Shown here: positions 4,831 to 55,588 of the stretch, one piece after another
Numbering within the stretch: position 1 is the stretch's first letter
How the letters are laid out: every line of letters starts with the position of its first letter
Assembly (NCBI GenBank): GCA_030390025.1
Contig: CM059431.1
Location: 112,160,001 to 112,224,000, forward strand
DNA: 64,000 nucleotides
Direction of reading: 5' to 3'
DNA from: Squalus acanthias
Taxonomy: Eukaryota
The notes under the pieces: model-generated
What the model was told of the DNA's origin: nothing
Database searches by the model: none
The model's input: only the letters and a program-made list of their open reading frames with translations
Translations under genes and position numbers: made by a program

Positions 4831-5007
4831 GAATGAAACCCAGATCCCCATTGCTCTCCACATCCCCATCATACCATCCCTGTCTCATGCCATATCACAG
4901 CGTCCTCCTGGGCGCAAAGCTGAAATCAGAGACACCACAAAAGATTCCAAACACAATTAATAAATTTATCTATATACATATCACACATATTACATCAACA
5001 CTATTAA

Positions 5008-6870
5008 CTAATTACCCTTGTGCAATCCCTTTGTGTGCTTTTTCCTACTCTAGTGCTCCTACGCAGTGCTCCCCCAGTGGCTGCAGCACGGCTGGTGGAA
5101 GGCTGCTGAGTTTCCATGCGGGAGACTTCAGATGGCCTTGCAGGACGACCTCGACCAGCTCTGGACCTAGAAGGCTGTAGACTGCACCACCTCAGCATAG
5201 GCGGCAGCAGTCTGGGCTGGCTGGATGACCGGCAGCGACAAGGGCAATGGCGGAGTGGCAGTGGTGGGAGCAGGAATGCTGTCATCCTGAGAGAGGACAG
5301 AAGGCTCCTGCTCCACAGGCTCACTCCCTCTCCCCCAGGGCAGCACCTCAGCATTCCTAGCAATCTGTTGGAGCTCAGATTGCTGGCCTGCTGCAACACC
5401 GTGAAAGCCCCGCTCGATGGTGGCAGACCCAGCCATGATGGCAGCAGTCAGACCTTGGGTGGCATCACGCTGAGACTGCATGAGAGCAGTCTGAGCTTCC
5501 GCTGTAGCACTAAGATGTTGGGTCGCTTCCGCCTGTACTGCAATGGAAGCTGCGACATCGCTCATCATGCGCGCCATCATATCTGGCGCGCCACGGTCTC
5601 TCCAGGAGTGAACCATCATTTGCAGGCTGGAAATGATGGGCTCCATGCTCTGCGTAGAGTCTTGTGCAATGTTGGAGGTGGACTCCTCCACGCTCCTTGC
5701 CATTGCTGAGAGGCTCTCTGGCACCCTTGCCATTGCACCTATCATTTCCATGTGCATGCCCACCACCCTTCTTCTGAAGGCCTCCCCATTGAGGTCCTCA
5801 TCTCAGTCCTGTGGAGCAGAACTTGCACGCGAACTCGCCCTCCAGGGAGTTGGCCCCCCAAGCTACCCTTTCCCCTGACCTTGCTGCAGCCCACTCATGC
5901 CCGGTGCCTCACCCTGTGCAGATTCTGCTATTACACTAGCCTCTAAAGAACGGGTAGTGCCAGTATCTGAGCTGGTGTCTGCGAGTGACAGATGCAGTGA
6001 TGCGGTGTCTTCTTCCTCCTCCTTCTCTTCCCCCCTCGCTCTCTGCAGCACCCTCGGGGACAGGCTGATTATCTGAAAGAAGAAAGGCACAAGAGTCGGG
6101 TTATGGTGAGGGGAGGGGGGCGGGGAAGCCAGAAATGCATGCATACAGCATGATTAACTTGAAAGTGAGAAATGATTGTGGGCTGAGGGGGAAGTGGGAT
6201 GTGAGAAGAAGGAGTAGGGATGAACATACCGTTGTTGTCCCCAAGGGGGTCAACGTCGCTGGTGGCCACGGTGCCCACGACCTGGTGCCCAATGATCTCC
6301 AGCACTCGACTCTCCAGCTGGCTCAGCTGTTCAATGTGGGCTTGGCCCCCACCTGTCCGCTCCTGCTCCCTCCTGTTGTGAGCCACCTTGGCCTGCAAGA
6401 GAAAGGAAAGTGTGTGAGTGAGTGAGTGTGGAACAATGTGTTTGGGTGATGTGCCTGCCATAGTTGAATAACTGTTATTGTGTGCAAGGTGTGAGATATG
6501 GGTGTGAGTGTTCATAGGTAGAGATTGTTGGTGGGTGAGTGCTGGGGGTGTGGTGCATTGAGCACTGTGTGAAGCTTGTAGTACAGATGATGGTATGTAG
6601 CATTTGTTGAAGCCTTCACTCACCCTGACCACGTGTGAGGTCGTTAAACTTCTTCCTGCACTGGGTGTGGGTCCTGGGGACCACAGTGCCGCCCATGACG
6701 TGGTCGGCTATCTCCCTCCACATATTGCAGCAGACTTGTGGTGAGGGCCTCCTGCCAGTTGGCGGGTACTGGACCACCCACCTTCTCCACCACGAAAACC
6801 AGTGCCTCAAGAGCTTCATCCGAGAACCTACGGGCTCTCTCCCTCCATCTCCGGTCTGCCGTTGTTCCTA
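5008..6870 (-). pseudogene. Harbinger ORF2: Myb/SANT-like protein, three exons (about 6624-6870, 6230-6392, 5008-6072)
   Basis: WREIA...RTHTQCRKKFNDL motif; GT-AG sites cagg/gtgagt, ttgcag/GCC, AACG/gtatg, tttcag/ATA; long Ala/Gln-rich helical exon 3. Confidence 0.8.
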
Positions 6871-6962
6871 CGGATGTCTTCTAACTAGTGTTTGGTTTGC
6901 TGTTGGGGCAGCTGCATAGCCAACAATCCTGACAATGAGGTGCTGCAGCATCAATGAACCTC

Positions 6963-8215
6963 CAACAACAACAACAACAAAAATTTGACACCGAGCCACA
7001 TAAGAAATTAGGGCAGGTGACCAAAAGCTTGGTCAAAGAGGTAGGTTTTAAGGAGCGTCTTAAGAAGGAAAGAGAGGTAGCGAGGCGGAGAGGTTTAGGG
7101 AGGGAATTCCAGAGCTTAGGGCCTAGGCAACAGAAGGCATGGCCACCAATGGTTGAGCCATTATAATCAGGGATGCTTAAGAGGGCAGAATTAGAGGAGT
7201 GCAGATATCTCGGGGGGTTGTGGGGCTGAAGGAGGTTACAGAGATAGGGAGGGGCGAGGCCATGGAGGGATTTGAAAACAAGAATGAGAATTTTGAAATC
7301 GAGGCGTTGCTTAACCGGGAGCCAATGTAGGTCAGCGAGCACAGGGGTGATGGGTGAACGGGACTTGGTGCGAGTTAGGACACGGGCAGCCGAGTTTTGG
7401 ATGACCTCAAGTTTACGTAGGGTAGAATGTGGGAGGCCAGCCAGGAGTGCGTTGGAATAGTCAAGTCTAGAGGTAGCAAAGGCATGGATGAGCTGAGGCA
7501 GGGACGGAGACAGGCAATGTTACGGAGGTGGAAATAGGCGGTCTTGGTTATGCCGTGGATATGTGGTCGGAAGCTCATTTCAGAGTCAAATATGACACCA
7601 AGGTTGCGAACAGTCTGGTTCAGGCTCAGACAGATGCTAGGGAGTGGGATGGAGTCAATGGCTAGGGAACAGAGTTTGTGGTGGGGTCTTCCCAATATTT
7701 AATTGGAGAAAATTTCTGCTCATCCAGTACTGGATGTTGGACAAGCAGTCTGTCAATTTAGAGACCGTGGAGGGGTCGAGAGAAGTGTGGTGAGGTAGAG
7801 CTGGGTGTCGTCAGTGTACAGGTGGAAACTGACGCTGTGTTTTCAGATGATGTCGCCAAGGGGCAGCATATAGATGAGAAATAGGAGGGGGCCAAGGATA
7901 GATCCTTGCGGGACACCAAAGGTAACGATGCAGAGTGGGAAGAGAAGCCATTGCAGGTGATTTTCTGGCTACGATTAGATAGATAAGAATGGATCCAGGC
8001 GAGAGCAGTCCCACCCAGCTGGACGATGGTGGAGAAGCGTTGGAGGAGGATGGAGTGGTCAACCGTGTCAAAGGCTGCAGACTGGTTGAGAAGGATAAGG
8101 AGGCGAGGAGGGATAGATTACCTTTGTCACAGTCACAAAGGATGTCATTTGTGACTTTAATGAGAGCTGTTTCAGTTCTGTGGCAGAGGTGGAAGCCGGA
8201 TTGGAAGTAGTGGAA
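6963..8215 (-). mobile_element. L2-clade LINE, 5'-truncated, inserted in Harbinger copy 1
   Basis: FQSGF..TETALIKVTNDIL; LHWLPVKQRLDFKIL; GPKLWNSLP; (TTG)n tail. Confidence 0.9.
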
Positions 8216-8618
8216 AAAACCTGTGGCAATCATGACTTGCAATTAGACTGCCCCTGATATTGGTCCATCTTTTCAGTGTAACGCCAATGAGCTTGGGCTT
8301 TTAGATGAGATGCATGACTGCAATCATTTTAATGAGGAGTGAGCATGAATTTTGCGTGCATTCTAGACGATTTTCAGGTGGCACTACTTAGTCTAAACAT
8401 TGCCCATTCCTTGGCTGTAACAAATTTCTAGCCCATAGTGTTTATTGACAGTTAAAGGGCTGTTATTCACATAATTTATATTGTGGATATCATTAGAAAC
8501 ATAGGTGCTTTTGTCCTCCCCAAAATAGTGACAATACTCTGCTCTGTAAGGGCTGAAGCGTTTAAATGACAGTAAGATATGTCGGAAAGATTCTAACGTG
8601 CATCATTAAATATACTAT

Positions 8619-8828
8619 TACGATAGCAAAATACTGCGGATGCTGGAAATCCGAAATAACAACAGAAAACGCTGGAAAAACTCAGCAGGCCAGGCAACAT
8701 CCGTGGAGAGAGAAAGAGAGTTAACGTTTCAGGTCGAAACCCTTCGTCGACCTGAAACGTTAACTCTCTTTCTCTCTCCACGGATGTTGCCTGGCCTGCT
8801 GAGTTTTTCCAGCGTTTTCTGTTTTTAT
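8619..8828. mobile_element. Penelope-like terminal fragment as a perfect hairpin with 14-bp target duplication
   Basis: 77-bp perfect inverted arms 8661-8737 and 8747-8823; flanking direct repeat attaaatatactat at 8605-8618 and 8829-8842; same family as 37748-37884. Confidence 0.7.
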
Positions 8829-9825
8829 ATTAAATATACTATGTCAGGTCTGAACACAAGATGGCAGTGTATGTATTCAGCTGATGTAACTTTATTCTGA
8901 AATGGCAGGCAGAAGTCTCCGAACTCCTTGGACAAGAATACCTTCCTGTGTAACTGGCAGTGCTTTATCTGCCGACTTGCTCTGATGCCAGGGATTTCCT
9001 GTTCCTTCCATTCGTTCTTCTCTTACTTCCTCCCACCATGCAATCTCCGCAGACCATGCCAGGGGTAACAGAGGGTTTGATGCTGCATGAGTTCCTTTGC
9101 CAACACCTACTATCATAACCGAAGGGAAGATGTGCGAATCAAAACTTCTCTGTCACTATATTGACTGGCAGGATTGGTATAAATTCGCTTAAACATGGGA
9201 ACAGTGGGAGTATCTGTGGGAGAAACTGTTTAAAATACTTGTTCCTCAGCTGCCTTTGACCAGCAGTTTTAAAATCTAAAACCTAGTACTGTACCAGGAA
9301 ATGACTGTTATCACTGAGTCATTTTTCTAATCATTTAGGATTGTGTCATCAGTTGGAAGATTGTAGTCCCTCTATCTTAAACAGTTAGACATTCTTTGAA
9401 AGAATACTTCTGTAGCATTACTGGAAGCAAAATATGATGCCTCACTTACCGTCAATAGCTACTCACTAAACTGGAAACTAATGTTTGGCCTTGTAAGGTT
9501 AGTAAAGTCAACAATAGTCTCTTACTCACAGAAGGATACAAGGCAGGCATGCAACAGAGCACCAAGCACTGCCCAGCTTCACCTGTCTCTTCCCATTCCC
9601 ATTCCCATTCCATTTACCTATTTTCCTTTTCTAACCGTGTCGCCCACTTCTCTGCCCCAAATACTTCTCCCTTGTTGTACTGATTCTATAAAGTCTTGAT
9701 AATCGCACTTGATGTCCTGATTGTAACCATCTTTGTTAATGAGCGGTCTGAGTGGGGATTCAAAGTTCGCGTCAGTTTAGTACGTCATTCTTGTTGGGAC
9801 TGTCACCACAGTAACCGCAGTCTTA

Positions 9826-10670
9826 GGGGGGAATTTTCCCAGCCCTGAGGAGGCGGGTTTGGAGGCGGGACTGCCGGGAAAATGGCAGAAACTGGGAGCG
9901 GGTACCGACCGCACTCCCAACCCGCCTCCACGCCATCTTCCCGGGAGGCGGGTCCCCGAGTTGCGCAGGGACCCGTCGCCTCGAGGCGGGAAGGGGATTA
10001 GAGCCAATTAACTGCCTGTTAACAGGTAGTTAACAGGCAGTTTTGAGGCTTATCCCCATTTTACCCCTGCAAGTGCGGGCTTCCCGACGGCTGCGAACCT
10101 CGCCAGGGTCAGTGAGGCGAGCAGTGGGTCTGCAGGGGTGAGAGGGATCGAAAAGTGCGCTGTGAAGGTGAGTGATGGGTGCAAGTGTGGAGAGGTAAGT
10201 ATGAGAGGTGAGTGTAACGTGTTAGAAAAAGTTTACTTACCTTTGTTTCTTCCTGCAGGCTTCAACCCTTGGGGATCCGGAGGTGCCTCATCTCAATGGC
10301 AGAGATGACAGAATGGCTGCTGCATTCTCAGATGCAGCAGCCATCTGATTTCTGCTGAGGAAAGAGGTTTTGGTGAGTATTTGTGCAAGGACTCACCATA
10401 GAACAGAGATTGTCAGTGTTTGACAGCTTCTCAAAGCTGTCAAACGCTGACAATTCATCTGTCAAAAATATTTGACAGATGAAACGTCATACGCTGACGT
10501 CCTCTGTCACCGGCTTTCCCTTAATTGTCCAGCTAAGCTCGCAGGACAAGCTTAACAAGGTCAATCAAGGGAAAAGAGCGTGGGTTGGCCGGACGTCGTT
10601 GGGGGCGGGACTAAAACCCGACAACCAGCAGTCCCGCCCCCAACGTGCCCCCATTGATAAAATCCAGCCC
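9826..10670. mobile_element. Harbinger-type MITE family A, copy 1
   Basis: TIRs ggggggaatttt / aaaatccagccc, flanks TTA and TAA; homologous to 20337-21146 and 48316-49122. Confidence 0.8.
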
Positions 10671-11287
10671 TAAGTTTGCATGTTCTTTCAATGTTACGAT
10701 TTTTTGACTTGCTCTTGCTTTGCTTGTTAGATCCTGATAAACTTGTACTTAGTTTCTTGTAGCTACAGTGCTGCTATTGTGTGTACGTAGTGTGATGTTG
10801 ACCTTTCTTACCCCTCTCATTTGTATTTTGCTTGCTTCTTTCCCTTTGCATGTTGTAGCTTTTACTAAAAAGCATCCAAAAATAAGAAGTAAAATAAATT
10901 GTATTAAACATAGTCTGGATACAGACATTTGCTGTGACATGAAGTTCTGCTCCAGTCATACCATGAAAAGATAGTACCGCTCAGAGACCTGAAATGGGAA
11001 TCCTGCACAAATATCTCGTCCCAGGCTGCCTTTGACCACAGGAGAGAGAGCTGCTAATGCATCATTTTATAACATTTAGACCTATTGGGCAATTCAGTAG
11101 AGCGCTGTTCCTCTTTAGCCATCTTTCTAACTTAACAAATTACAACAGGATTATGTTTAGTTATGTCTAGTCAGAGAGGGTCAAGCTACTGTGAAAGGGG
11201 AAGGGAAGGGATCTTCAACTGAACACTTACCAATATCCAATATGTTTCCAATATAATTATTTAGTGCAAGTTATTAATGTTATTAAT

Positions 11288-11422
11288 GTGCAAATTGGCT
11301 GCCATGTTTCCTATATTACAACAGTGACTACACTTCAAAAATAAAAGTACCTCATTGGCTGTAAAATGCTTTGGGACTTTCGGTGGTCGTGAAAGATGCT
11401 ATATAAGTGCAAGTCTTTCTTT
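11288..11422 (+). mobile_element. Deu-SINE 3' tail with L2-like end
   Basis: gtgcaaattggctgcc..cagtgactacacttcaaaa..gctttgggac..gctatataagtgcaagtctttc. Confidence 0.65.
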
Positions 11423-11769
11423 AATGTTGCACTGCTAAGTAAGAAAACATTTAATGAAATTGAATATATGATGTGGTTTGAATGATGATAAATGACATGC
11501 TTTAAGAGTTAAAACAGAATTGGGTAGTTTTAATAGAAATGCCTGTTCACAATTAAAATGGAGCCAGTCATGTATGTTTTCTAAGTCTGGCTAGACAACC
11601 CCACACGACACCAGATTGTAATAGATCATGAGAAATGTCTGCTGACAGTGTCATATGTTAAGAGGAGTTACGTTGCTGGTGACAGTTGTTCTGCTTCATG
11701 TATTCAAGGTGGCTTTGCTGCATTATGTGGTAACTGTGGAAAGTTTACAGAAGTGCCCACCTCTCCTGT

Positions 11770-12875
11770 AACCCCCTGCTTGAATCTCTCCAATCAGGTT
11801 TCTGCATCTCCCACAGCACTAATCAAAGTCATGAATGACATTCGCTCTGACTGCATTGTCCCTCCCCATCTTCCTTGACCTCTTTGCAGCTTTTGATACT
11901 GTCAATCACACAATCTCCTCCAATGCCTCTACTCCATTGTCCAGCTTCATGGAAACATCTTTGCTTGGTTCCTCTCTTAACTAACCTATTGTAGCCAGAA
12001 CATCTCCAGCAATGGCATTTCTTCCCATCCCTGCACCATTACCTCAGGAGTTCCTCCAAGAATTTATTTTTGGCTCCTCCTCTTTTTCATCTGCATGTCC
12101 CACGCATTCACCATCGAATCCACCGCCCTCCCTGGCCACTGAATTGGGCTGAACCACAGTCTTCACGAACATGGAGACCTGGTTGACCCCAAGCTAAGCT
12201 TTAGACCTCATAGCCATGTCCATCACAAAGACTGCCTACTTCCACATTTGCAACATCACCTGCCCCTGTCCTTATGTCAGCCCATTTGCTGCTGAAACTC
12301 TCACTCATGCCTTTGTCACCTCCAGAATCGATTACTCCAATTGTTTCCTGATCAACTTCCCATCCTCCACCTTCCATAAACTTCAGCTAATCCAATAGTC
12401 TGTTGCCCATATCCTATCTCACAATAAGTCACACTTACCCATGACCGCTGGCCACACTGACTTGCTTTCGCTCCTGGGCCCCCAGTTCCTCATCTAAAAT
12501 TCTCATCCTTGTGTTTAAATCCCTCCATGATCTCGTCCCTCCCGATCGCTGTAACCTCTTACAACCTTCCCATCCCACAACTCTCTGTTCCTCTGACTCT
12601 GGCCTCTTGTGCATCCCCACCCCCATCCCGTTCACCCTACCATTAGCAATCTGTGTCGTCAGCAGCCTAGGTCCCAGTCTCTGGAGTTCTCCCCTAAATC
12701 TCTCCTCCCTTCTACCTTCCCCATCTCCTTTAAAAACCGTCTTAAAACCCCCCTCTTTGAGCAAGCTTTTGGTCACCCTTCCTAATTGCTCCTCCTTTGA
12801 CTCAGTGTCCATTTTTCTTATGGCTCTTTGAAGCATCTTTGGAATGTTTTTATGTTGAAGGCGCTATATAAATGC
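11770..12875 (+). mobile_element. Old degenerate L2 LINE
   Basis: TALIKVMNDI; ITKTAYFHICNI..AAETLTHAFVTSRIDYSN; FKSLHDL; tail ggcgctatataaatgc. Confidence 0.8.
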
Positions 12876-13476: not shown

Positions 13477-14793
13477 TCAAAATGATCCCCAATATGTGTT
13501 CAGAACCAGAAGAATGATAAAAACAATGTTGTAGATTGTCTACAGTCGTACCCAACATCAACATTAAATCAAACTTCAACCAATAGTTTGAGACCATCAG
13601 TCTACAAAGACCACCATAGGAAGTCTCAAGTTGAATTTATAGACAGGTCTGAGTGCATTTGAGTTAATTTCTGTTTATTTCCCATGACTGTGAAACGCCA
13701 CAGATATTAATGCAACACCTAAATACTGTTAGAATACTCAAGTGGCATACTGTTCTTAGTTTTTAAGTTATCAGAGTTTTAAAATGGAAGTAAAAAATGG
13801 AAGTTATGAATCATTTTGTTAAAGTTGTGAAAACATGGTTTAATGGTCTCAATAAAGGTAAGATCAGATTAATGAATGGTTCTTGGCTGCTCAATCCTTC
13901 AAATTTAATTTACATCAGCCTTTGAACAGGTTTTCAAACTTTGCTGACTGTGGTATAATGCCCAGCATGGGGGACTAAGGACATCAGCCTATAAAATAAC
14001 TGATTTCCTCAAATGTAGAAATATTGACATTTATATTTTAACTAAGTTTAACTGAGTAACATCTGCAGAGTTTGTAATGAACTTAAAAAATTGGCATAGC
14101 GGAGTATATTCTTTTGAAAGAAAAGAAAGATTTTCTGATTGGTAAGGGTTAGCAAGGATGTTCCCTGTGGAATTCTGACCTCTCTGTGTGAAAGAAATGC
14201 TAATGCCGCACATTTGTGTGTGGAGGGATTTAAAATTTTATTTTCCACAGGTAGCTTAAGCATTGATCCAGAGCTCACACAAAGTGCCCAACCTGTTCCT
14301 CAGCGTTCAGTTTCTAATTGCATCTCTTTCCCGCAGCCTGCGGGACTAAAAACATCTGCTTTCTCAGGTGGGGGGCGAAGCCAATGTGGGAGGCTCTAGC
14401 TGTGAACCACACTTCAAAATGTCAGAGAGATCATCTAGAGTCCCTAAAACTAAGGCGAGCCATTGAGTTCCAGGAGATTTACTGGGCTGCATAAACCCCC
14501 TTGGACCAGAAAGCCCACAGGGAACAATTATCCCCTTGAAATGGAATTTAGGTGTTGCATTAATATCTGTGGCGTTTCACAGTCATGGGAAACAAACAGA
14601 AATTAACTCAAATGCACTCAGACCTGTCTATAAATTCAACTCGAGACTTCCTATGGTGGTCTTTGTAGACTGATGGTCTCAAACTATTGGTTGAAGTTTG
14701 ATTTAATGTTGATGTTGGGTACGACTGTAGACAATCTACAACATTGTTTTTATCATTCTTCTGGTTCTAAACACATATTGGGGATCATTTTGA
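13477..14793. repeat. 248-bp inverted repeat (13477-13724 and 14546-14793) with about 820-bp spacer
   Basis: Arms are reverse complements with 3 mismatches by manual comparison. Confidence 0.95.
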
Positions 14794-16860: not shown

Positions 16861-17219
16861 TTAAGAAAAAAAAAGTTTTTATTATTTGCTGCAGCACTTC
16901 CCACCTCTCCTGAAGATGCTGACTTGCAGCACAGTTCCACAGTTACCAGCGGCCCTCTGGTATATTTATCAAGTGTGAGCCCAACTACTGACCAAACAGG
17001 TATCACAGACTAGAACGTGTAACTTGGACCTTTTGGTCTATGTGGGCTGATATTGTACAGGGCGGTAACTTTACCCGTAGAAGCCACTGGAGGGGCTTCA
17101 ACAGAATACGGCATCTCAACCTGACTCAGAAATGTCCGAAAATGATCCATAACCTTTGTTATACAGGCAGATTCAGCAGCCACTTTGCACGCAATGAGAA
17201 CACACAAATAAAAAAGAGA

Positions 17220-17382
17220 TGAGCATTTTATCTGTTTCTGTGGCGGTGATTGATGGAGGAATGTTAGTTAGAACACTGGGAAAACTCGCTTTTCTTTTCA
17301 AATAGTCCCATGATATTTTTACCATCCACCTGACCACTGGAACAGGCAAATGGGCCCTCGATGTAACGTCTCATCCGAAGAA
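17220..17382 (-). mobile_element. Deu-SINE fragment
   Basis: Reverse complement contains ttcggatgagacgttac..gagggccc..caggtggatg..atcatgggactatt. Confidence 0.6.
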
Positions 17383-17389
17383 GTAATGC

Positions 17390-17548
17390 TCATAGAATCA
17401 TAGAATGATACAGCACAGAAGGAGCCCATTCAGCCCATCGTGTCGGTGCCGGCTCTTTGAAAGAGCTCTCCAATTAGTCTCTCTCCCCTGCTCTTTCCCT
17501 GTAGCCCTGCAAATTTCTCCTTTTCAAGTATATATCCAATTCTCTTTT
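17390..17548 (-). mobile_element. CR1-type LINE 3' end
   Basis: catagaatcatagaa tail and gcccattcagcccatcg stem on the plus strand. Confidence 0.7.
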
Positions 17549-18039
17549 ATGTCAATTATTCCCATGTGATGTCAATCAATGCTTTCAAAAAAATATATAA
17601 GAATGAGTGATTGGATCGAGGGTTGTAGCATAGAGAGCTAATTAAGTACTCCATGATGCTTTCTGGGACCAAGGTGCTGTCTGTGGAAAACAGCAGTGGA
17701 GATGTGGGAATGGATGGACATTTTTGGAGTTACCTTTGGAGGGGGAGAGTTATTTATCCAGAATTTTACCTCAAGATTAAATATATGGTGTAGAATTCAT
17801 GATATGGTCGCTTTTAATTTGTGATAGGAGCAAGCTTGATGGACTGAATGGCCTCGATTCATTTTGTGCTTAAGTTTGATCAATAACAATGCACTGTGTG
17901 AATGCAACAGTGTGAACAGTTTGTGACTCTTTCTATAAAGAGTGGCGGTGTGATTTATCCCCACCCCACCAAAATACAGTCACTCATCAGGGAAATCTTG
18001 TGAAGGTGCATTAAAATAACAGTTTTGAATAATCATCAA

Positions 18040-18420
18040 AAGCTCAATGACCTGCATAAAACTTGATCGAGTTCTTTGATGAAATAACGGAGAGGGTTGA
18101 TGAAGGTAGTGCGGTTGATATTGTGTATATGGACTTTCCAAAGGCCTTGATAAAGTGTTATGTATTAGAATTGTTAGCAAAATTGAAGCCCATGGGATTA
18201 AAGGAACAGTGGCAGCGTAGATATTACATTGGCTGAGTCACAAAGCAGAGAGTAGTGGTGAACGGTTGCTTACTAGACTGGAGGGAAGTATAGAGTGGTT
18301 CCCCCCAGGGATTGGTATTAGAACCACTGATCTTTCTGAAATATATTAATGACCTGGACTTGGGTATAAGGGGAACAATTTAAACGTTTGCGGATGACAC
18401 AAAACTTGGCAAAGTAGTAT
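18040..18420 (+). mobile_element. Old CR1 RT fragment
   Basis: VDIVYMDF.KALDKV and FADDTKLG readable in codons. Confidence 0.75.
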
Positions 18421-18743
18421 TGGGCCCCAGGCCTTATTATTATTGAGCCGGCAAGCTGTGGATACCTAATGGGTGCCCACAGGCAGCTCACCAGAGAAGA
18501 GGACTCGATTATTGGGCCATTGTGTCATCTGCAGCGGCCCGCGGGTAAATCCTTAACGTGGACCGGGAGAGGGGTGCGACCGGAAGGGCGGGTAGCAGTG
18601 GCCGGGATCGGGAGGATAGCGGCGGAGATCGGAGGTGGGTGGAGGTTGTGATCAGGGCGGTGGGGGAAAGCAGTGGCCTGCATGGTTTTGAATGTGAAGC
18701 CCCTCCTGGCTCCACATTCAGGTAAGTATCTTTTAAACACTTA

Positions 18744-19636
18744 GGGGTAGAAATTAGGTCGCGCCCCATTTGGGGCGCAAATATCGTCTGGACGCAAATA
18801 TTAGCGCCTGGCGCTAATTATCGGCACTGACTGGAAACTTCACTTTTACCACCCCGGGAGGTGAGTGGAGCGCTAAAGCAGGCGCTGCACACCTGTCTTA
18901 AGGCGCAAAGGCCGAGCAGTGAGGCGCTAACTCAGAGCGCTGGCAAAGCTCATGTAATGTCAGTCAGCAATGGAACACACACACAATGGCACGGGCCAGT
19001 TCTTAAAGGGGATGGTTAATCTTGCTTTCCATCCACATCCTGTTCATTGCAGCCTTGAATCTCGGCCTGGAGAGACTTGCACATCAAATGTGCTGGAAAG
19101 AACAATGGAGAGTACCAGGCAAAGAGCTCAGAGTGCAGCTCCCACAGTCTCTGCTAAATCGATACAAGGAATGGCAAATCAAAATGAACCTGCAAAGTGC
19201 TGCTCAGTACCCAAAACTCCTTCACACAACGTTGAATCTCTCCAGAAGTCTCTCCCTCTCTCTCTCAGAATGCGTAGTTCAAAAATGCCACCAACAATAA
19301 AAGACAGGAAGAGGCCCCCTTTAAATAGCGCCCCCCCCAGCCCCACAGCGATTGATAGCATTCCAGTCTTCTGGTCGTTGGAAGCGCCAGGCGGTAAGGC
19401 AGGGGGCGCCACTCAATTTCTGCTCCGGGGCGCCACAAGGGCGTTGCACCATGGAATGACGTCACAATCTGCGCGCGCAGGTGGTCGCAGCGGTAAGTTT
19501 TAGCGCCGCTGCATAATGTCAAGTTAAGTTCTCGAGCGGCGCAAACATCGCTGCGCCCGGGCGTTAGCGGCTTTGCACCCCATTAGCGCCCTCTTAAGGC
19601 GCTAACGGGAGGCGCAATCAACTGAATTTTTACCCC
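18744..19636. mobile_element. Non-autonomous Harbinger element B1
   Basis: TIRs ggggtagaaatt / aatttttacccc, TTA on both sides, agcgcc-rich subterminal repeats like Harbinger copy 2. Confidence 0.85.
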
Positions 19637-19639
19637 TTA

Positions 19640-20333
19640 GGGCTAAAAATTGAGTAGTGCCCCTTGGGGCACGAACTTCGCCGGGGAATTAGCGCCCTCG
19701 CGCCGGAAATTGTGTGGTTGTGCCTCTTGGGGCGCTGCGAGTCAATATCGCGGTGCTACGCTGCGGCACGTCTTGCTGCGGTATTGCAGGCCTTCCTCCC
19801 CTTCTTAAAGGGGAGGGGCCTTGCGCAGCGTGACCCGGGGCCCAGCTGGGCCCCCGGGGATCGGGAGTGCAGGCAAAAGAGCCCGGCACTCAAGAGAAGT
19901 GCTGGGCTCTTGGAGGGCAGCCGGCACTCCGCGGGGGTGGGGGGGAGGTTCAGGAGGCCGGGGACGGGAGCGCAGGCAGGTGCTGGCAGGCGGCCAGCAA
20001 CAAAAATGGCCACCCTGCACCTCGCCTTTAAATAGCGCCTCCCTGGCCGCAGGTAGGCCCCCCTGACCCCGACGGACATAGCGTCCGGCAGTAAGTCATG
20101 GGGCGCACCCGAAGATCGTGGCCGGGGCGCGAGCGGGGCGCTGCGCACGGCGATGGCTTCATCTTCAGCGGCGCAGCGTCGCAGGGCACTACGGGTTAGC
20201 GCCGCCGCTAACCTTCCGCTGAATTTCGCGGGAGGCGTGGGCGGTGCCGCCCCCGGGCGCTAGTTGCTTTGCGCCCCGCTAGCGCCCTCTTAGGGCGCTA
20301 ACGGGAGGCGCAAAGCAATCCAATTTTTCCCCC
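19640..20333. mobile_element. Non-autonomous Harbinger element B2 (very GC/CpG-rich)
   Basis: TIRs gggctaaaaattg / caatttttccccc, TTA on both sides; homologous to 47064-47365 and 63169-63980. Confidence 0.85.
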
Positions 20334-20336
20334 TTA

Positions 20337-21146
20337 AGGCGCGATCTTGCCAGCCCTGGGAGGCAGGTATGGAGGCGGGACTGCCAGGGAAATGGCAGAA
20401 TTTGGGGGCGGGTGCCCAACCCGCCTCCAACCCACCTCCGTGCCATCTTGCCAGGAGGCGGGTAGCCGACCTGCGCCGGGTCCCGTCTCCTTGGAGGCGG
20501 GAAGGGGATTAGTGCCACTTATCTGCCTGTTAACAGGTAGTTAACAGGCAGCTAAGAGGATTATCCCCATTTTGCCCACACAAGTGCGGGCTTCCCGAAG
20601 GCTGCGAACCCCACCAGGGTCACCGAGATGAGTAGTGGGTCTGCGGGGGTGTCTGCAGGGTCCAAAAGTGTGCTGTGAAGGTAAGTGATTGGTGCAAGTG
20701 TGGAGAGGTGAGTATCTGAGGTAAGTGCAAAGTGTTAGAAAATGTTTACTTACCTTTGTTTCTTCCTGCAGGCTTCAATCAGTGGGGATGCGGAGAGTCT
20801 CACACCTCCGCGGCAGAGATCACAGATGGCCGTTGCATTCTCCAATGCAGCAACCATCTAATTTCTGCAAAATAAAGAGGTTTGATGAGGCCTTGAATTC
20901 AAGAACTCATCAAACTACAGAGAATGTCAGTGTTTGACAGCTTCACAGAGCTGTCAGACGATGACAATTCATCTGTCAAAAATTTTTGACAGATGAAACA
21001 TCATACGTTGACGTTCTCTGTAACCGGCTTTCCCTTAATTGGCCTGCTAAACCCGCTGGGTTGGCCAGAAATCGATGGAGGCGGGACTGAAACCCGACAA
21101 GTGGGAGTCCCGCCTCCAAAAGCTCCCCATTGGCAAAATCCAGCCC
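20337..21146. mobile_element. Harbinger-type MITE family A, copy 2
   Basis: Homologous to 9826-10670; ends aaaatccagccc; TTA on both sides. Confidence 0.85.
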
Positions 21147-23294
21147 TTAATTTGTTGGCTGCAACCTGCAGTGGTCACCTTAAGGATTGGCTGTAATGCT
21201 GCATGCAAAGCTGCTTTAGACTGGGCCGGCTGTGCTCAGGGCAACCCAATATTGCAGAAGGGGCCTCGAACAGGCGTTAGGCCCTTTATTCGAATATGCA
21301 AAGGACCTAATGCCTGTTTCAGGCATGGGCCCTGGACACCTATTTTTTTGCCGACATCAATATGGCGGGTGACGCACTTTGGGCTCGTAATAAGCGTGTG
21401 CTTCCTGCCCGGCACATTGGAGGCTTAGGTGTCTGCTTAGCGCCCGAAAACCGGGTGCATTTTTAGATGAACCTGTTACTGAAAGAACTGGTTTCAGTAA
21501 CAATACTCTCTGTGATAAAGCTTCAGGTTGTACAGCAACAGAAGAGGATCTTGAATCTGAGACTTTTGCCAAGCTTTTGAAGTAAAGAAGGGAATTAAGT
21601 AGGGGCAGAAGACAGAGAATGGGGGAAGATCAATATTAAGTTAACTTAAAGCTTATTGGAAGACTGGTGTGAAAATAATTTGTGAAATAGATGGGTTTTT
21701 TGCTTTCTGTCTCACCTTATTATTCCAGCTGCTAATTTTAAAACTTATAAATCAATCTGACCATTCTAGTTGTACCCAAGCTGATCTTAATATGCAGTTT
21801 ATAATGAGGATCAGATGTCTGTCTTTAAGCTTGGGCCCCAGTTAACGACGCCTGATCACCAGGAAATTTCAGGACCCTGCTGCGTTTTTCTTCGGAGAAA
21901 AATTGAAGTAAGAATGTATTACAGTATTAATGGAAAAGGAAAAGTCAGCATATGCTGCAGCTTTTGGAATACAGTGCAGTTCCTCTCCGATTCAGACGAT
22001 TACTATCCGATGCATAAAGCTCCAAGAAATAACATTGCTGTAATGTCAGACTTTATTATAACAAGGTCTTTAAACTTTTCCCGCTGTGCGCTTGGAAATA
22101 AAGTACCTTCATGCCTAAACTCATTTGCAAAGGGCTTAGTTACTGTTTACGTTTCCCGACTTCAAATGTTTTTGCTCACTTGTGGGACTATCTCCATATC
22201 TTACCATCAGGCACACTTTATATCATGTCCTATTGAGCATTTGATCATCATGAAGTGCATTGGACTATTCCCAACCAGATATTTAAAGGAGCTAATAGAG
22301 ACACGATGAACTTCTTTTGCTAAGCGCCTGTTCCATCTTATCTCTGCAGGGTGAGGATAAGTTGTTCAGACTTTCAGCCAAACAGCTTTGGGATTTATCT
22401 TAGTATTTGATTTGTTTTATTTGCAGCTTCGCACTGACGAGAGATGCCAGTGAATGCTCAATAATCGCTTAAATCTTTTTTCCTTTACCACTTCAGTACC
22501 CAGAGAATGTGGTGAGGCTTACAAAATGGGTTTGTGGGACAGTAAATTCAATAATATTTATCTTAAGTTAGCAGAATCTACGTTAAGGCATGTTGTTAGA
22601 ATTAACAGACAAGCAATCTGACTTTTCAATGACTGGTGGTAATCAAAGTTAGACATTTGTTGATAGGGTTTTATGGATTTGCGCTTTTGTCATAAATCTT
22701 CGCAAGCCAGGAACGTGCACATCACGTATTTAGGTGAAGAGGTCAACAGGCTTTCCAGGATTTTCCATCCATTCATTTTAATGGACATAAAATCCTGTCG
22801 GGCCTGCTGACCTTTGAACCTGAATTCCCAACATGCACTCCCAGTACACGGAGCTCTGCAATGGGAGTGCAAATTCGTAGAATCTGCCCTTATGTTGCCT
22901 GAAAGAAGAAACTGTAGATGCTGAAGGTGTTATTAATATTAGAACAGCCTTCATTAATTAAGTAAATGGAAAGCATCAATAAAACATGCTTATTAATTCC
23001 TACCCTAACCACTCTGTACAGTTGCAAAGCACACTAATATGATGTCCTGGGAATTTTGTTTCTACAGGATGATTTTGTGAATCATTGGCATTAATTGGAA
23101 CCAAATGAGTAATATCTTCCAATAATGCTTTTCCAACAGTTAAAAAATAATTATTGGGCAAATTAAAACATTATTTCCTGAGAGAAAAAGGACATGTATT
23201 TATATAATACTTTATCACCTCTCTCATTAGCATTTCCGAAATGACTCAAGACACTTCACAGAATGAATTACTTTGATGTGCAGTGACTTTTATA

Positions 23295-27640: not shown

Positions 27641-28299
27641 TAGAGGTCTAGCAGTCAACGTTGTCAACAGTGGAGAAAATTCAGAGTGATACTTCAACAA
27701 AGTGACAGACTGGAATATCCATTTCACGATTTGGAACAATGTTTATTCTTCAGAGTGGCACACATCAAAACAGGCAATATTTTTTAAAACAAAAAGGGGG
27801 ATTCTCACTTCCAGTGAGTGACAATTGACAGGTCTGTAGTCAACATCATTGTGTTCGTAATGATATTACTTTGAGTTGTGTTTGGTGGAAGAGGAATCAA
27901 TTATTAGTAATGCTTGTGTGAGCTGAATCTTCGAAGTTGGCCTTTTGGGAAGCATTGCTAGGTTCCAGTTAGCTGATGTTTGTATTTTATTTTTGGATGG
28001 GTTGGTTGTGCAATGCCAGTCAGTGATGCTGTGGTTTTGGGCATGGATGATGCCACAGAATTATGTCAATTATGTCAAGGGTGTTCCCGTGGTTTCCACT
28101 GTGACTGGCTAATGGTGAATATGAATATGCAGCTGTGTTCATTTTAAAACTGCCAGTAACTCATAGGAAAATAGTTCTCTTCTGGTTTTATCTTGTGGAA
28201 TAAATTCCATGCTCCACATATGCAAGGTACCCAGCATGCATCGCATGTTGTGCTGGACCAAATACGTTTTTTATAAATCGAATGCATAAATTCTGTGTA

Positions 28300-30084
28300 T
28301 ACATGGCTTTCTCCCCAACCTCGGCGGGGTTGGTGCGGCCGGGGTCGGTGGCAGGTCACGACCTCGCTGCTGGCTCCAGCCCACTCTGTAGAATGATTTT
28401 ACGTTGATTGGGCTTGTTAAGCCCGCCCAGCATGTTTGCCAGCCAATTGAAGGAAGCGGGTCTGATGTCATCATTTGATGACGCGTCATCAGCCGGTTTC
28501 CTTAAAGGGACCATGCGCAAATTAATTTTGACAGTTGTGCTGTCAGTGTTCTACAGCATTGAGGTGCTGCAAACACTGACAAGCACTGCACAGAGGTGCA
28601 TGGCTGCACCCAGGCTCTCCCGACTCCCTCCATGTGCTTATGGAGGTAGTCACAGCATGCAGGGAGATTCTCTTCCCTTCCAATGGGCAGAAGAGACCTC
28701 TCCAGGAGATCAACGCAGCCTGGTTGCACATTGCACAGGAGGACACAAGCAGGGATGTCATCAGGAGGACCAGGCTGCAGTGACGCAAACCTTTCAATGA
28801 TCTCAGATGATCACGAAATGTTACTGCAAAGCCACACTCAATCTTATCCTGCTGTGCCACTCATCACATCCACATCACTCTGCCTTCCCTTCCCTACTCC
28901 TGCACATCTTTACTCACACCAACTTACCATGCACCTCCACCCATCCCTCTCTATCTATATTGTCACTTCCCATCTCACGAGGCACCCCTCACACTCACCC
29001 TCATCCTAGTCCACATACCAACTAACGACACACAAGAGTAGGCACTTGTGTGTTTTAGCCAATGTTCATGTGAAGTTTCTGTTAATACGCTGTCAAACAT
29101 TGAAATCTTTATTTTCAACACTTTGCATTCTTGGACAGATTTGTGTGCACCTTTGGAAGTGGCTTAGTGAGTTGCAGTGAATGGTGAGACATAACGGTAC
29201 CCCCCTGCAATGCTGATGAGTGTGAAAGTAATGGCTTGGGCATTGTAGGGATGCTTTATGGTGTTAGTGTGGGGTGGTGCCAATCTGGTGCATCATGTGA
29301 CAGCCAGGGTGTACAGCATCAAGTGAAGTAAAGCTGGCTATGGTGAGGCCATCCCTGGCCTCCCGGGCAGCAATGTGGTCGGGTGCTGATGCCCTGTGTC
29401 CTGTGCATCATCAGTTGATTGTGGAGAAGGTTGGTGTAGGTGTTGGGGCTGCTGGTGTGCCTGGTGCTGCTGGTGTTGGGGCTGATCGTGGTGGGATTCT
29501 GAGGACCAAGGTGAAATAGTTTCAAGGGCACCGATGCTGATGTAATAGATGGCAGGTGAAGTTGAGATGCCAGAAGCGATCTGTCAATGGTGAGAGAGGT
29601 TGTTCCAATGAGATGACACTGGATAGAGAGTTTACTCCAAACACTTGCAACCTGCATAAAGCTCAATCTGTCTTCCAAATGCAGTAAGCAACAGCTTCTG
29701 AGCTTGGAAAGTGAACAGCTGTGAGATGGGAGCTTTTATAGCATATTTGCAGCTGTCAAGTAATGAGATGATTTCATGGCCATTCAACTCCCGACCTCCT
29801 TACCTGACGTGATCCCTGAGCAGCGTGGACCCTGTGGGCGACCTCGTAAAACTTAAAGGTGAGCTCAAAACACTTTTTAAGTGGCTCTTAACAAGGCCAT
29901 AATGACCTAAATTGCCTCCCCCGCCGCTGGGTGTCGGGTCTGTTCAGCGTTGACAGACCCGACATCTGGGAAAGTCGCTTGGTGGCTGGTTGACAGTGGG
30001 TTCCCGACCCGCTGTCAGAAAAAATGTTTCCCCACCTGACCCGCCACCAAACGCGCCTGCTGACCCCCCCGCAAAATACCCCCC
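28300..30084 (+). mobile_element. Non-autonomous Harbinger derivative with a decayed Myb/SANT exon (about 28600-28805)
   Basis: Codons read AAPRL../..REILFPSNG..AAWLHIAQE..RRT.LQ*RKPFNDL; right end aaaatacccccc; left end uncertain. Confidence 0.6.
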
Positions 30085-30420
30085 ATAGGCCCAGATTTTC
30101 CTGCCAAAATAACGGTGAGGCTAATGGCACTCGCCGCTATTTATGCGTAAATGGTACAGCAACTTCAGGTGAGGGGCGGGTGCGCGGTTAAACTCACATA
30201 TCCAGAAGTTGCTGACCGTGTTGCGCCACTTCACGAAAACGGCATCTTGCTGTCTGATTCACCGTTGAAATAAATAGAACGGCATGAATTTGCTGTATTT
30301 GCACAGTAGATTACAACTAAACTCAGCACAGAAAGTTAAGTCTTTTCCATTTCAGTCGAAGTACCCTTTTAAAGACATGATAAGTTTTAATTATGGCCAA
30401 ACAACCTCTCTAGCACTTAA

Positions 30421-30695
30421 ATGTGCGGGTTAGGTTGATTTGGCTATGATAAATTGACCCTTAGTGTTAGGGGGGGATTAAATATGTGGGGTTATGGGGA
30501 TAGGATGGGATATGTTAGGGGGAATTAAATACGTGGGGTTACTGGGGTAGAGTGGGATATGTGTACTGTGGGGATTAAAGCAGGGACAGGGTATTGGATT
30601 TGGATGATCAGCCATGATCGTATTGAATGGCGGAGCAGGCTCGACGGGCCGAATGGCCTACTCCTGCTCCTAGATTCTATGTTTCTATGTTTCTA
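30421..30695 (+). mobile_element. HE1-like (V-domain) SINE 3' part with CR1-derived tail
   Basis: gtgcgggttaggttgattt..taaattgacccttagtgt followed by the CR1 tail and (ttctatgt)n. Confidence 0.65.
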
Positions 30696-31249
30696 AATTT
30701 AATTATTACTAGCTTGGAGTCTCATTCCTTCAGGTTTTAATTGTTGTTGGAGATTTTTAAAATGTAGGGGGTGAAATTGGGTACCTTTGCGTCTCCCGTT
30801 AGTGCCTCCGGAGGTGCTAATGGGGCGCTACCGGCTTAATGACCTGGCGCGGCGATAGTACCGATGCCCGCGAAATTGAAGTGGAGGTTTGCGGCGGTGG
30901 TACCCACTAGCGCCACGCTCTCCTGCGCCCGAGATCGTGACGTCATCCGACTGTGCAGCGCCCCGCCTCAGAAATTCACACTCTCGCCCCCTGCCTGAGC
31001 GCCTGCCGTTAGCAACGACAGGTAGAGGAGGCGGTCTGCAGTCGGATGAGCACTGGAGGAGCGGTATATAAAGGCGTCAACATTGGGTTTATATTTAGTC
31101 GGCAAAGAAAGCTGCCTTGTCAGTTTGACATAGGCAAACAGGCGTTTTGAGTGATTTCAGCGTTTTTCAGTTGAAGGAGTCTTCTGGCTCAGAAAAATTA
31201 TTCAGTTTCAGTTAGGTGAGATTTGGAAGTGCAGCATTTCCATACTTCA

Positions 31250-32415
31250 ATGGGGGCTGTACTGGCGCTGGACCTCGCCCTCCAGCATCAACGTCGGAGG
31301 CAGAGAGAGAGATTTCAAAATGTGGCCAGAGGGAGGAGGGCCAATTGGGCTCTCAACAGGAGGCCTTACCCACCCAGGGTATTCCGGCAGCAATTCTCCT
31401 GCATCAATTTCACTGAGGAACAGTGTCTTAGAAGGCTCCGCTTCACCACCTCCTGCAGCCAGACCTCGAGCCTCACATCAGGAGCACCACGGCTCTCTCA
31501 GTGGCAGTCAAGGTCACCGTCGCCCTCAATTTCTACGCCAGCAGATCCTTCCAGTGTGCAACAGGAGATATAGCCAACATCTCGCAGTTCGCCATCCATT
31601 GCTGCATCCGGGAGGTCACAGATGCTCTCTACAGAAGAAGGGACTACATTTCCTTCCCCATCACCAGAGAGAAGCAGGACAAGCGTGCATGTGGCTTTGC
31701 CAGGATAGCGGGCTTCCCCATGGCACAGGGCGCCATTGACTGCACCCTTGTCGCTCTGCGGGCACCCCATAGCAATCCTGAGGTCTTCTGTAACTGCAAA
31801 GGCTACCACTCACTTAATGTGCAGTTGGTGTGCGACCACACACAGCGAACCCTCGCTGTCAATGCCCGCTATCCTGGCAGCAGCCACGATGCCTTCATCC
31901 TGCACCAGACCGGTGGGCCAGATCTGTTCCAGCCGCCACATCAATCTCGTGGCTGGCTGCTGGGAGACAAGGGCTATCCGCTCTCCACCTGGCTCAGGAC
32001 TCCCCTCCGCAACCCCAACACTCCTGCTCAGCACTCATATAATGAGAGCCATGCTGCCACCAGGAACATCATTGAGCAGACCATCGGGGTGCTCAAGCAA
32101 CGGTTCCGCTGCCTTGATCGCTCGGGAGGCGCCCTCTGGTACTCGGCTGAGCAGGTGTCTCTTTTCGTCGTCATCTGCTGCATGCTGCACAACTTGGCCA
32201 TCATGAGGGCGCAGCCATTGCCACCAGGCATAGCCGCACCTCCTCAGGAGGATGAAGAGGGAGACAAGGAGGACGAGGACAAGGAGGAGGCGGAGGAGGA
32301 GGCGGAGGAGGAGGAGGAACAGGAGCACGAACATCAGCGATGGAGGAGCCCACCACTCAATCGGCCTTGTGGAAGGGCGGTCCGTGACCGCCTCATCAGA
32401 CTTCAGTTCCAATTA
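31250..32415 (+). pseudogene. Harbinger DDE transposase with one frameshifting deletion near 31446
   Basis: MGAVLALD..CLRRLRF then VAVKVTVALNFYAS, GAIDCT, GSSHDAFIL, LLGDKGY, IEQTIGVLK, CCMLHN, acidic tail. Confidence 0.9.
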
Positions 32416-32580
32416 ATTGGAGGCCACTTCCTGGTTGCTCAGCATGTCCCCATCATTCCATCAATTTCTCATTCCATACCACACCCCAAAGCTGAAATGA
32501 GACACAGCACCAAATCTGCAACATTCCAATAATAAATTTATCCAAATTCAGCAACCACATATATAGAGCAGCAATATTAA

Positions 32581-34455
32581 CTAATCACCCTTGTGCAAAC
32601 CCTTACTTCCCCTCTTTACAGTGCCTTTCCCTAATCTACTGCTCCTACATAGTGTCTCCCCAGTGGCTGCAGCAGGGCTGGTGGAAGGCTGCTGAGTGTC
32701 GGTGCCAGAGACTACAGATGGCCTTGCAGGACACCCTCGACCAGCTCTGGGCCTGGAAGGCCCGGCTGTACACTGCGCCACCTCAGGATGGGTGACGGCA
32801 GTCTGGGCTGGCTGGATGACAGGCAGCGACAAGTGCAATGGCGGAGTGGCAGTGGTGGGATCAGGAATGCTGTCCTCCTGAGAGAGGACAGCAGGTTCCT
32901 GCTCCACTGACCCACTGCCACTCCCCCGGGGCAGCACCTCAGCATCCCTACCAATCTGCTAGAGCAGAGATTGCTGGCCTGCTGCGACACCGTGAGATCC
33001 CCGGTGGACTGTGGTGGACACAGCGACAATGGCAGCAGTCAGAGCTTGCGTGGCATCAAGCTGAGACTGCATGAGAGCAGTCTGAGAATCGATGGCACCA
33101 AGCATAGACTGCATTACAGCACTAAGACGTTACGTGGCTTCCGCCTGTGCTGCAATGGAAGCTGTGACATCGCCAATCACATGCGGCATGAGGTCTGGAT
33201 CCACACGGTCTCTCTGGGAGTCTACCATCCTCTGCACAGTGGAAATGATGGGCTCCATGGTGTGCGCAGAGCCTTGTGCAATGTTGGAGGTGGCCTCCTC
33301 CACGCTCCTTGCCGAGAGGCTCTCAGGCACCCTTGCCATTGCATGACCATCACCCTTCTTGTGAACGCCTCCCCATCGAGGTCCTCATCTGAGTCCTGTG
33401 CAGCAGAAGTCGCACGCGAACTCGCCCTCCAGGGAACTAGCTCCTGAGCTACCCTTTCCCCCTGGCCTTGCTGCAGCCCACTCGTCCCTGGTGCATCATC
33501 CAGTGCAGACCCCTCTACTAAACTTGCCTCTAAAGATCGCGTAGTCCCAGTATCTGAGGTGGTGCTGCGGGTGAGACATGCAGTGACACGGTGCTTTCTT
33601 CCTCCTCCTCTTCTTCCTCACTCTCAGTGGGAGGCTCAGGGACAGGCTGGTCAGCTGGTTGCTGATTCTCTGAAAGCAGCAGTGAACAGGTGGGGGTGAT
33701 GCGCAGCTTCAACAGCTTGCAGACCTGGAGGAGTGAGTGCTGTGACTCATTGGGCAGCAGGTGCGGGGCGTCGTGGCCGTCGGCGATGTCAACCCCCTTG
33801 GGGGCAACAACGGTATCTTCAGCCCCTCCCCTTCTCTCATCCCACTTCCCCTCACAACACAAGCCTTTCCCACTTTCCAGCTCCTGATCACTGTCTGCAT
33901 TCCCTGCTCCATTCCTGCCCCCCTGCCCTCACTTTAACGCGAGTCTTGTGCCTTTATGCTCCCTCCTATTGTGAGCCATCTTGACCTGCAAGAGAAATGA
34001 ATGTGTGTGAGTCAGAGTCCAGCTGTGTGTTTGGGAGATATGCCTGCCGTAGTTGAATAGCTGTAATTGTAGGCAGGGTGTGAGGTGTGGATGTGAGTTT
34101 TAGCAGGTGAAGATGCTTGGTGGGTGAGTGGTGGGGGTGTGGTGGTTTGCGCAATGTGTACAGACTGAGGTTCAGATGCTGGTATGTAGGACCTGTTGAA
34201 GCATGTACTCACCCTGACCACCCGAGTGAGGTCGTTGAATTTCTTCCGGCATTGTGTCAGGTTGTGTACGACCACACTACTGGCTGAGACCTCCTGGGCC
34301 ACTTCCCTCCACATTGCCCTGAATACCTGGGGCAATGGCCTCCTTCCAGTGTCTGGGAACAGCACTGCCCTCCTTCGCTCCACTCCTGCGACTAATGCCT
34401 CCAGTGCCTTGTCCGTGAAATAACGAGCTCTCTCCCTGGGAGTGGGATTAGCCAT
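32581..34455 (-). pseudogene. Harbinger ORF2 Myb/SANT gene (exon 1 34213-34455), disabled by internal inversion and stops
   Basis: RERARYFTDKALEALV..WREVA..TQCRKKFNDL; donor cagg/gtgagt; acceptor ttgcag/GTC at 33985. Confidence 0.85.
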
Positions 34456-35249
34456 CACGATCAGGGGATTGACTTCCTTGCAGGTGGCCTTCACAGCCAG
34501 CAATGCTGATAATGAGGATGCACAATGAGCTGGAAGGAGCTAGTGTGAAAGGATCATTCCTGATTGCAAAGTACCAGCTGGTAGAGCCCCCCCTGTAGCG
34601 CCCTGCTTAGGTCATTAGCGCTTGATTTAGCACTGCAGCTCTTTCCAGGAGCGTTAACAACCAATTTAGGGAAACCTAAATTTTCACAATCTCAAAATTT
34701 AGCGCCCCAAATGGGGCGATACCGAATTTCACCCCCGTAAAATTTAAAATTATTATTTTTTTAAACTTTTCCCATTCTGTCTCTTTTTTCTCTCTCTCTC
34801 TCTCTTAATCCAATCTTTCTTTCCCTCTCTTTATTTATTTCTCTGTACCTGGATTGGCATTGAATTCACCCACTCTAATTTACACTTCCTTCTCATTCCT
34901 TGTTCTGATTGGTTAAGGAGATACACAGTTGCTTGCCCTGTTCACTCAGGTCCCAGATGCCCTGTTTCCTTCACTGCGACGTTGTCAGCTCGCACTTTCA
35001 GCAACTTGCCACGCAAAAAATTCGAAAACCTAAACGTGCATGGGCAAGTCTAACTAATGGAAGACACTGTTAAAAGCCCTGCTACAGCAAAATCTGGCCG
35101 TTATAGATCAAGAAACAAATACAGCAATTGAATTATATGGATCATCCAAATGAGCCCTAAGAAGGCAAAACACAAGCCAATTCTTTTGGGTGCAACATTT
35201 TATTATATACAAGGTCACTTGTTACGTTAGTTAAATGAAAGTACTGCAA

Positions 35250-42380: not shown

Positions 42381-42420
42381 TTTCCATCTTCATCGGCAAT
42401 TATCTCCTCCATCTTGCATT

Positions 42421-55482: not shown

Positions 55483-55588
55483 TGAGAAGTCGCACAATAC
55501 CAGGTTATAGTCCAACAGTTTTATTTGAAATCACAAGCTTTCGGAGCGGCTGCTCTTTCGCCAGTCCAACACCGGCATCTCCGCATCA
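55483..55588. mobile_element. Penelope-like fragment (second family), internally deleted
   Basis: Nearly identical to 60711-60790, followed by ccagtccaacaccggcatctcc. Confidence 0.6.

Follow-up and report, generated by a model that had tools for sequence, protein, structure and literature searches.

A 64,000-nucleotide stretch of Squalus acanthias DNA (assembly GCA_030390025.1, contig CM059431.1, positions 112,160,001 to 112,224,000), referred to here as the window, contains at 18741-21149 three non-autonomous elements with Harbinger-type ends that lie end to end inside a repeat (Table 1). The elements, designated B1, B2, and A, are each bounded by short terminal inverted repeats (TIRs) starting with G or A, and four TTA triplets part them with zero other spacer; this arrangement, with TTA as the only sequence between neighbors, had been proposed in a preliminary description of the DNA and is exact to the base. 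The claim that the three elements are different also holds. Homology between B1 and B2 (76.7% over 245 columns) is confined to the right ends, the interiors being different, and element A has no homology to either one (best local scores of 20 and 22), with TIRs and subterminal sequences that differ from the B-type ones. The first TIR base of element A is A, with G at this position in both of its relatives, and the B2/A junction (20329-20342) resembles a subterminal palindrome of B1 and B2 (repeat D2). Tandem duplication was considered and rejected as the origin of the stack, as no tandem repeat overlaps it and the only homology among its members is that of the B1 and B2 right ends.

The host repeat carries hairpins and is multi-copy on both sides of the stack, with depths in run X1 of 951 on the left and of 4707 and 1121 on the right versus ∼20 in unique DNA. 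It had been described as an older element resembling a miniature inverted-repeat transposable element (MITE). The multi-copy flanks confirm it as a repeat, but intact TIRs were looked for and not found, no paralogue is present within the 64-kb window, and no empty site was seen among the 15 of 1785 joints listed. Those 15 joints also include no partial allele and no TIR-to-TIR joint; single-copy junctions would not rank there. The inner junctions of the stack are bridged by none of the 32 of 492,061 contig pieces listed and thus rest on the window assembly and the four matching triplets. Coverage of the right flank was low in runs X19 and X21 and was not used for any inference.

Back-to-back TIRs were sought across the window with a TIR profile for which 17 solo ends alone served as the training set, using 100 block shuffles as the control. 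The scan recovered three pairs at a 3-nt spacer and none at spacers of 5 to 12 nt, versus a mean of 0.14 pairs in the shuffles, where one pair was reached in 14 of 100 cases and more than one in none. This profile was used instead of a fixed degenerate junction pattern, which had returned two matches (one of them internal) and had missed the junctions of the stack itself. The scan also located a second junction, near 30 kb, between elements that we call X and Y. X is a Myb-remnant Harbinger derivative (∼28283-30084, with the remnant at 28625-28804) for which the left end is not recognisable and the target-site duplication (TSD) is putative, and Y is a MITE at 30088-35100 with TTA at its far end.

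Table 1. Coordinates of the stacked elements, their flanks, and related features of the window
Feature	Position	Strand	Remarks
Host repeat, left part (approximate limits)	18421..18740		multi-copy depth, bin 18539-18715; no intact TIR seen
Genomic left half-target, TTTTAAACAC	18731..18740	+	9/10 to the reverse complement of the B2-end flank consensus
TSD copy 1 (TTA)	18741..18743		triplet read in the sequence
B1, non-autonomous Harbinger-type element	18744..19636	+	893 nt; TIRs agree at 11/12; likely the last insertion
TSD copy 2 (TTA), common to B1 and B2	19637..19639		triplet read in the sequence
B2, non-autonomous Harbinger-type element	19640..20333	+	694 nt; TIRs agree at 11/13
TSD copy 3 (TTA), common to B2 and A	20334..20336		triplet read in the sequence
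Element A, non-autonomous, second family with Harbinger-type ends	20337..21146	+	810 nt; TIRs agree at 12/16
TSD copy 4 (TTA)	21147..21149		triplet read in the sequence
Host repeat, right part (approximate limits)	21150..21460		multi-copy depth, bins 21194-21547; first 10 nt form a weak half-target, 4/10
Second TIR-NNN-TIR junction, X-ATA-Y	30072..30099		ATA at 30085-30087; TIR profile scan
Two-gene Harbinger, B-type TIRs, TSD GTA	30767..34736		DDE_Tnp_4 and Myb_DNA-bind_5

Identity and relatives of the stacked elements

The assignment of B1, B2, and A as Harbinger-type non-autonomous elements, made in the preliminary description, is supported by their TIRs, by the 3-nt TSDs, and by B-type ends that are shared with a two-gene Harbinger in the window. 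That element encodes a DDE_Tnp_4 transposase (31432-32529, + strand, E = 1.3e-34) and a Myb/SANT protein of the Myb_DNA-bind_5 family (34012-34539, − strand, E = 1.5e-6), and its end is common to B1 (76.2% over 227) and B2 (71.9% over 196). An element of this kind likely mobilised B1 and B2. Comparison of the same element with element A gave a best score of 31, and no two-gene partner for A was found within the window; A is placed in PIF/Harbinger, provisionally, by its TIR type and 3-nt TSD alone. No Pfam family was detected in the three long frames of B1 and B2 (all three searched), A has no internal frame of 120 amino acids, and no Rfam family matched within 17000-23000.

All three elements belong to abundant families, with depths of 0.5 to 2.5 million in run X1 compared to ∼20 for unique DNA. 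Solo copies of element A occur at 48316-49122 (TSD ACT) and 9826-10670, and relatives of B2 are found at 63170-64000 (90.7% over 537) and 47064-47365 (83.1% over 242). Solo relatives are flanked on both sides by 3-nt TSDs (ACT, TCA, or GTA). The B2-family copy at 63170-64000 contains an internal inverted duplication (63200-63443 versus 63730-63952, 90%). Two related MITEs, at 30088-35100 and 46841-47466, each host a B-type Harbinger, namely the two-gene element (TSD GTA) and the B2 relative at 47064-47365 (TSD TCA). Motifs of the elements were found at 0 loci in metagenome contigs, viral contigs, and prokaryote genome contigs.

Target preference and order of arrival

The right end of B2 continues into other flanks in 338 contigs of run X1 and in 342 contigs of run X22 (24 of 10,107 loose-end rows listed). 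In both organisms the sequence behind the B2-family ends yielded the consensus NNN-GTGTTTTAAA, with an agreement of 0.38 and 0.37 over 30 letters versus 0.32 to 0.34 at unrelated ends. When 18 hand-picked solo ends were compared to the reverse complement of this consensus, they matched at a mean of 4.9 of 10 positions against a background of 2.6, a value that was reached in 0 of 200,000 resamplings. These Harbinger families have a palindromic target preference, in line with the extended preference that the preliminary description gave for PIF/Harbinger. TTA is not the rule among their TSDs: TTA or TAA accounts for only 4 of the 18 solo-end triplets. The zebrafish element Harbinger3_DR prefers AAACACCWGGTCTTT (PMC3016246), and a 15-nt target preference was reported for vertebrate Harbinger (PMC2836001). 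The GGG/CCC termini at the stack junctions rebuild the C-TNA-G core given for NuwaII elements (PMC4482050).

The left flank of the stack is an unusually good target. It matches the half-target at 9 of 10 positions (background 8.6e-5, or 1 in 12,000), compared to the mean of 4.9 for solo ends, and so exceeds the average insertion; it also matches the Harbinger3_DR half-site at 6 of 6 positions (background 7.7e-4). The original right flank of the stack matches at 4 of 10. When read as right half-sites, the left TIRs of B1 and B2 each match at 6 of 10 positions (background 2.7%).

The preliminary description held that three insertions at one trinucleotide are unlikely by chance. For uniform insertion of 14 to 25 elements into 64 kb, 0.003 to 0.009 TSD-sharing junctions are expected per window versus the three seen, so that uniform chance fails to explain the stack and the claim stands to this extent; the uniform null is, however, the wrong one, as the elements choose their targets and it ignores their extended preference. 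We built a target profile from the 18 solo ends at widths of 6 and 10 nt, treating positions as independent. Following an insertion, the left TSD scores 58 to 91 times the average site in the 6-nt model and ∼220 to 11,800 times in the 10-nt model. For the last insertion, the three available TSDs (left, middle, and right) score ∼71 to 91, 0.7 to 0.8, and 11 to 12 in the 6-nt model and ∼6,700 to 11,800, 2 to 3, and 1 in the 10-nt model, and B1, the apparent youngest element, sits where both widths place that insertion. By hand arithmetic from the model rates, a site of this kind would receive another two insertions with a probability of about 0.0004 to 0.06. With 2 of the 18 ends being this good, the number of triples expected over 214 windows of the genome ranges from a fraction of one to a few dozen, which makes a single selected triple unsurprising.

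B1 and A appear to differ in age. Letter shares were compared at 31 of the 40 places listed (of 1389), the nine others lying outside the three elements. At the 18 places in B1, 22 to 88% of the depth in organism A (run X1; median 41%) lacks the alternative letter, versus medians of ∼1% in organisms J, K, and L (exceptions being one place at 48% in L and one at 16% in J). Within organism A itself the window letter is rare at the six B2 places (median 1.4%) and at the seven element-A places (median 0.2%). One copy contributes a depth of ∼17 to a total of more than 1 million, so the B1 shares do not derive from the stack locus; judged by these shares, B1 likely represents a young subfamily of this lineage and is probably the youngest member of the stack. 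A contig of organism L covers 21114-21626 with 43 differences, including 33 letters within element A followed by unique flank. This contig crosses the right end of A, which we infer to have been in place before the split from organism L. With the B1 subfamily abundant in organism A only and the end of A already present in organism L, the arrivals would be separate in time. Contigs of the left host flank in organisms J and K cease to align at 18681 and hence are silent on the presence of B1, and the CpG content compared across the stacked elements gives no order.

The stack is thus the product of serial insertion and is neither one composite nor a duplication, given the solo relatives of A and B2 in the window and the hundreds of other flanks at the B2 end. 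The independence of the insertions, as claimed in the preliminary description, is borne out by the same observations and by the apparent age difference between B1 and A, and the re-use of the TSD beside a resident end is evident from the TTA at every junction.

Explanations for the shared target site

The successive arrival of the three elements is probably explained by the site itself, a strong hot spot that is defined by its sequence and regenerated by each insertion. Insertion would duplicate TTA and leave the good genomic half-site beside the left copy, with the TIR of the resident element replacing the other half of the target. B-type TIRs, which start with G and bear an A-run, would fit this half at 6 of 10 positions, equal to or better than the original flank (4 of 10); the left TSD would then likely remain a strong target. 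Newcomers would land at the left TSD, giving polar growth in which the youngest element adjoins the good half-site, and neither the tethering of a protein to resident ends nor a benefit to the host would be required. If this explanation is correct, the locus provides a clean case of cross-family double insertion in a vertebrate, and such stacks would preserve the order in which families were active, their youngest member adjoining the best half-site.

Several observations weigh against this explanation. The reads agree only modestly with the B2-flank consensus, and the target profile derives from 18 hand-picked ends of mixed families, with the two widths differing ∼100-fold. The left TIR of element A is a poor half-site, matching at 2 of 10 positions or at 3 of 10 in the form of a relative. 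The evidence for the age of B1 consists of 18 listed rows out of 1389. Private changes outside CpG number 17/667 (2.5%) for A and 5/181 (2.8%) or 8/128 (6.2%) for B2, with overlapping intervals that do not give the order of A and B2, and with B2 as the earlier arrival, the insertion of A would have been into a weak site next to the resident right end of B2. At the X-Y junction (30085-30087), the X end matches the half-target at 4 of 10 positions, the Y end at 2 of 10, and the far flank of Y at 4 of 10, and a model based on target sequence only gives a probability of 0.016 to 0.21 that ∼20 ends include one or more junctions.

These last points bear on an alternative in which a resident end, once bound by the transpososome or by the Myb/SANT protein, attracts insertion to a position 3 nt away regardless of the genomic flank, as in the targeted insertion of the bacterial elements IS30 and IS911. 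We consider such guidance unlikely, yet it is the strongest of the competing accounts. Three junctions are present among ∼24 recognisable ends in a single window, and the one at 30085-30087, which lies outside the selection made in the preliminary description, has weak half-sites and is no better than an average target, unlike the left flank of the stack; together with the possible entry of A at a weak site beside B2, it counts in favor of end-guided insertion. The Harbinger Myb protein is reported to bind both element ends and the transposase (PMC2836001), and a bacterial precedent is mentioned in PMC7986276. Tethering does not, however, predict that the stack would form at a half-site found at 1 in ∼12,000 positions, and the most frequent flank at B2 ends is the target motif rather than a TIR. 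Moreover, the last insertion used the best-scoring TSD and not the middle one between two resident ends, and a single protein would need to read the differing TIRs and subterminal sequences of A and B. A need for the self-targeting suggested in the preliminary description, with possible guidance by the SANT protein, is thus not supported, as the flank on the left side comes close to a perfect half-target (9 of 10) and published work describes double insertion where targets are preserved (10.1101/158386); nothing here supports the safe-harbour role that it also proposed. If ends do guide insertion, the Myb/SANT partner gains a role in target choice, and Harbinger vectors could be steered to pre-placed landing ends. 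A broader form of the idea, to which we assign the same low likelihood, combines half-site mimicry by the TIR with Myb/SANT binding: vertebrate Harbinger transpososomes would be drawn to resident Harbinger ends and cross-family cassette arrays would grow in a polar and time-ordered manner at TSDs throughout the genome, as a eukaryotic counterpart of IS30 and IS911. Arrays of this type would constitute a stratigraphic record of transposon activity.

A regional hot spot, where open chromatin or the DNA shape of the host repeat concentrates insertions and TTA alone sets the register, is very improbable. The host repeat does carry hairpins, and elements of this sort are crowded in the window, several of them nested, but a regional bias does not provide base-exact re-use, the solo triplets are TTA or TAA in just 4 of 18 cases, and the null already includes the local density. 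Still less probable is movement of B1-B2-A, in whole or in part, as a composite, or its formation by duplication or recombination between B ends. The right ends common to B1 and B2 and the likeness of the B2/A junction to the B subterminal motif could be cited for it. This reading is largely refuted, as the interiors of B1 and B2 differ, relatives of A and B2 occur solo, hundreds of other flanks adjoin the B2 end, and B1 and A differ in age; in addition, every triplet, whether inner or outer, is TTA despite the varying TSDs of these families, which points to in-place duplication of one target rather than an imported composite. The block accordingly does not behave as the single composite that the preliminary description had named as a refuting outcome. 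Least probable of all is an assembly artefact joining three repeats, which the lack of listed contig pieces across the inner junctions would allow but which is opposed by the intact TIR pairs of all three elements and the identity of the four triplets, by the runs of two organism A samples that hold 74 to 80% of the sampled words, and by the bridging of the right junction of A in organism L.

The window contains additional mobile elements and repeats. An open frame of 608 codons at 42361-44187 with CENP-B_N, HTH_Tnp_Tc5, and DDE_1 domains apparently encodes an intact transposase of the pogo/Tigger type. Other two-gene Harbinger elements, all decayed, are found at 3914-6786, 39094-40052, and 55584-59400, the last of which contains a 37-nt tandem repeat in 27 copies (57859-58877). 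An inverted repeat of 248 nt (13477-13724 and 14546-14793) is 98.8% identical, with the arms ∼820 nt apart. Position 17390 marks the start of a very high-copy repeat and is preceded by 1060 to 1430 loose-end contigs in four runs.

Comparison with known systems

Harbinger was reported as not found in elephant shark, and other cartilaginous fish were suggested for checking (PMC9179366). A literature search that covered main texts and few subscription papers returned no cross-family vertebrate Harbinger stacks and no Harbinger TIRs resembling their own target. Among the closest known systems are Harbinger3_DR and Harbinger3N_DR of zebrafish, which likewise have DDE_Tnp_4 and Myb genes, a 3-nt TSD, and a palindromic target with an AAACAC half (PMC3016246, PMC2836001). 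The core triplet of Harbinger3_DR is CWG, whereas those of the stack families vary (TTA, TCA, GTA, ACT), and the accounts consulted of the zebrafish elements make no mention of stacks.

Arrays of independently inserted elements are known from several other sources. Tourist MITEs of maize and rice form adjacent or nested multimers from independent insertions, with more than 10% of rice MITEs in multimers (PMC5172404); these are plant elements with a 9-nt preference, and that review does not state whether neighbors share a TSD, as those of the stack do. SaTar and Ac-mMITE arrays resemble the stack in being non-nested, linear, and composed of unrelated non-autonomous elements that inserted independently (PMC5907723, PMC8449440). 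They differ in that microsatellite-targeted Mutator-like elements are described as joined by microsatellites, whereas the only spacer in the stack is the 3-nt TSD.

Targeting by end-like sequence, the model put forward in the preliminary description, has been shown by experiment in other systems, with IS30 and IS911 showing targeted insertion at TIRs (PMC7986276) and with non-TA sites of Sleeping Beauty described as mirroring the transposon end (PMC7987939). The stack, in contrast, is known from sequence and also fits plain preference. P-element dimers have the TSD at their junction and are enriched at strong targets, and target preference together with the TSD was reported to suffice for their formation (McGurk and Barbash, 10.1101/158386). 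As described there, the tandem dimers of P element and hobo resemble the stack in their end-to-end joining by one TSD copy and in their better-than-average targets that are preserved by insertion. Those dimers involve one family in flies, whereas the stack comprises three elements of different ages with two TIR types and a TIR that bears a partial likeness to the target half. The stack is best explained by serial double insertion at a strong target that renews itself, and the partial mimicry of the target by the TIR and the likely polar growth are modest new points.

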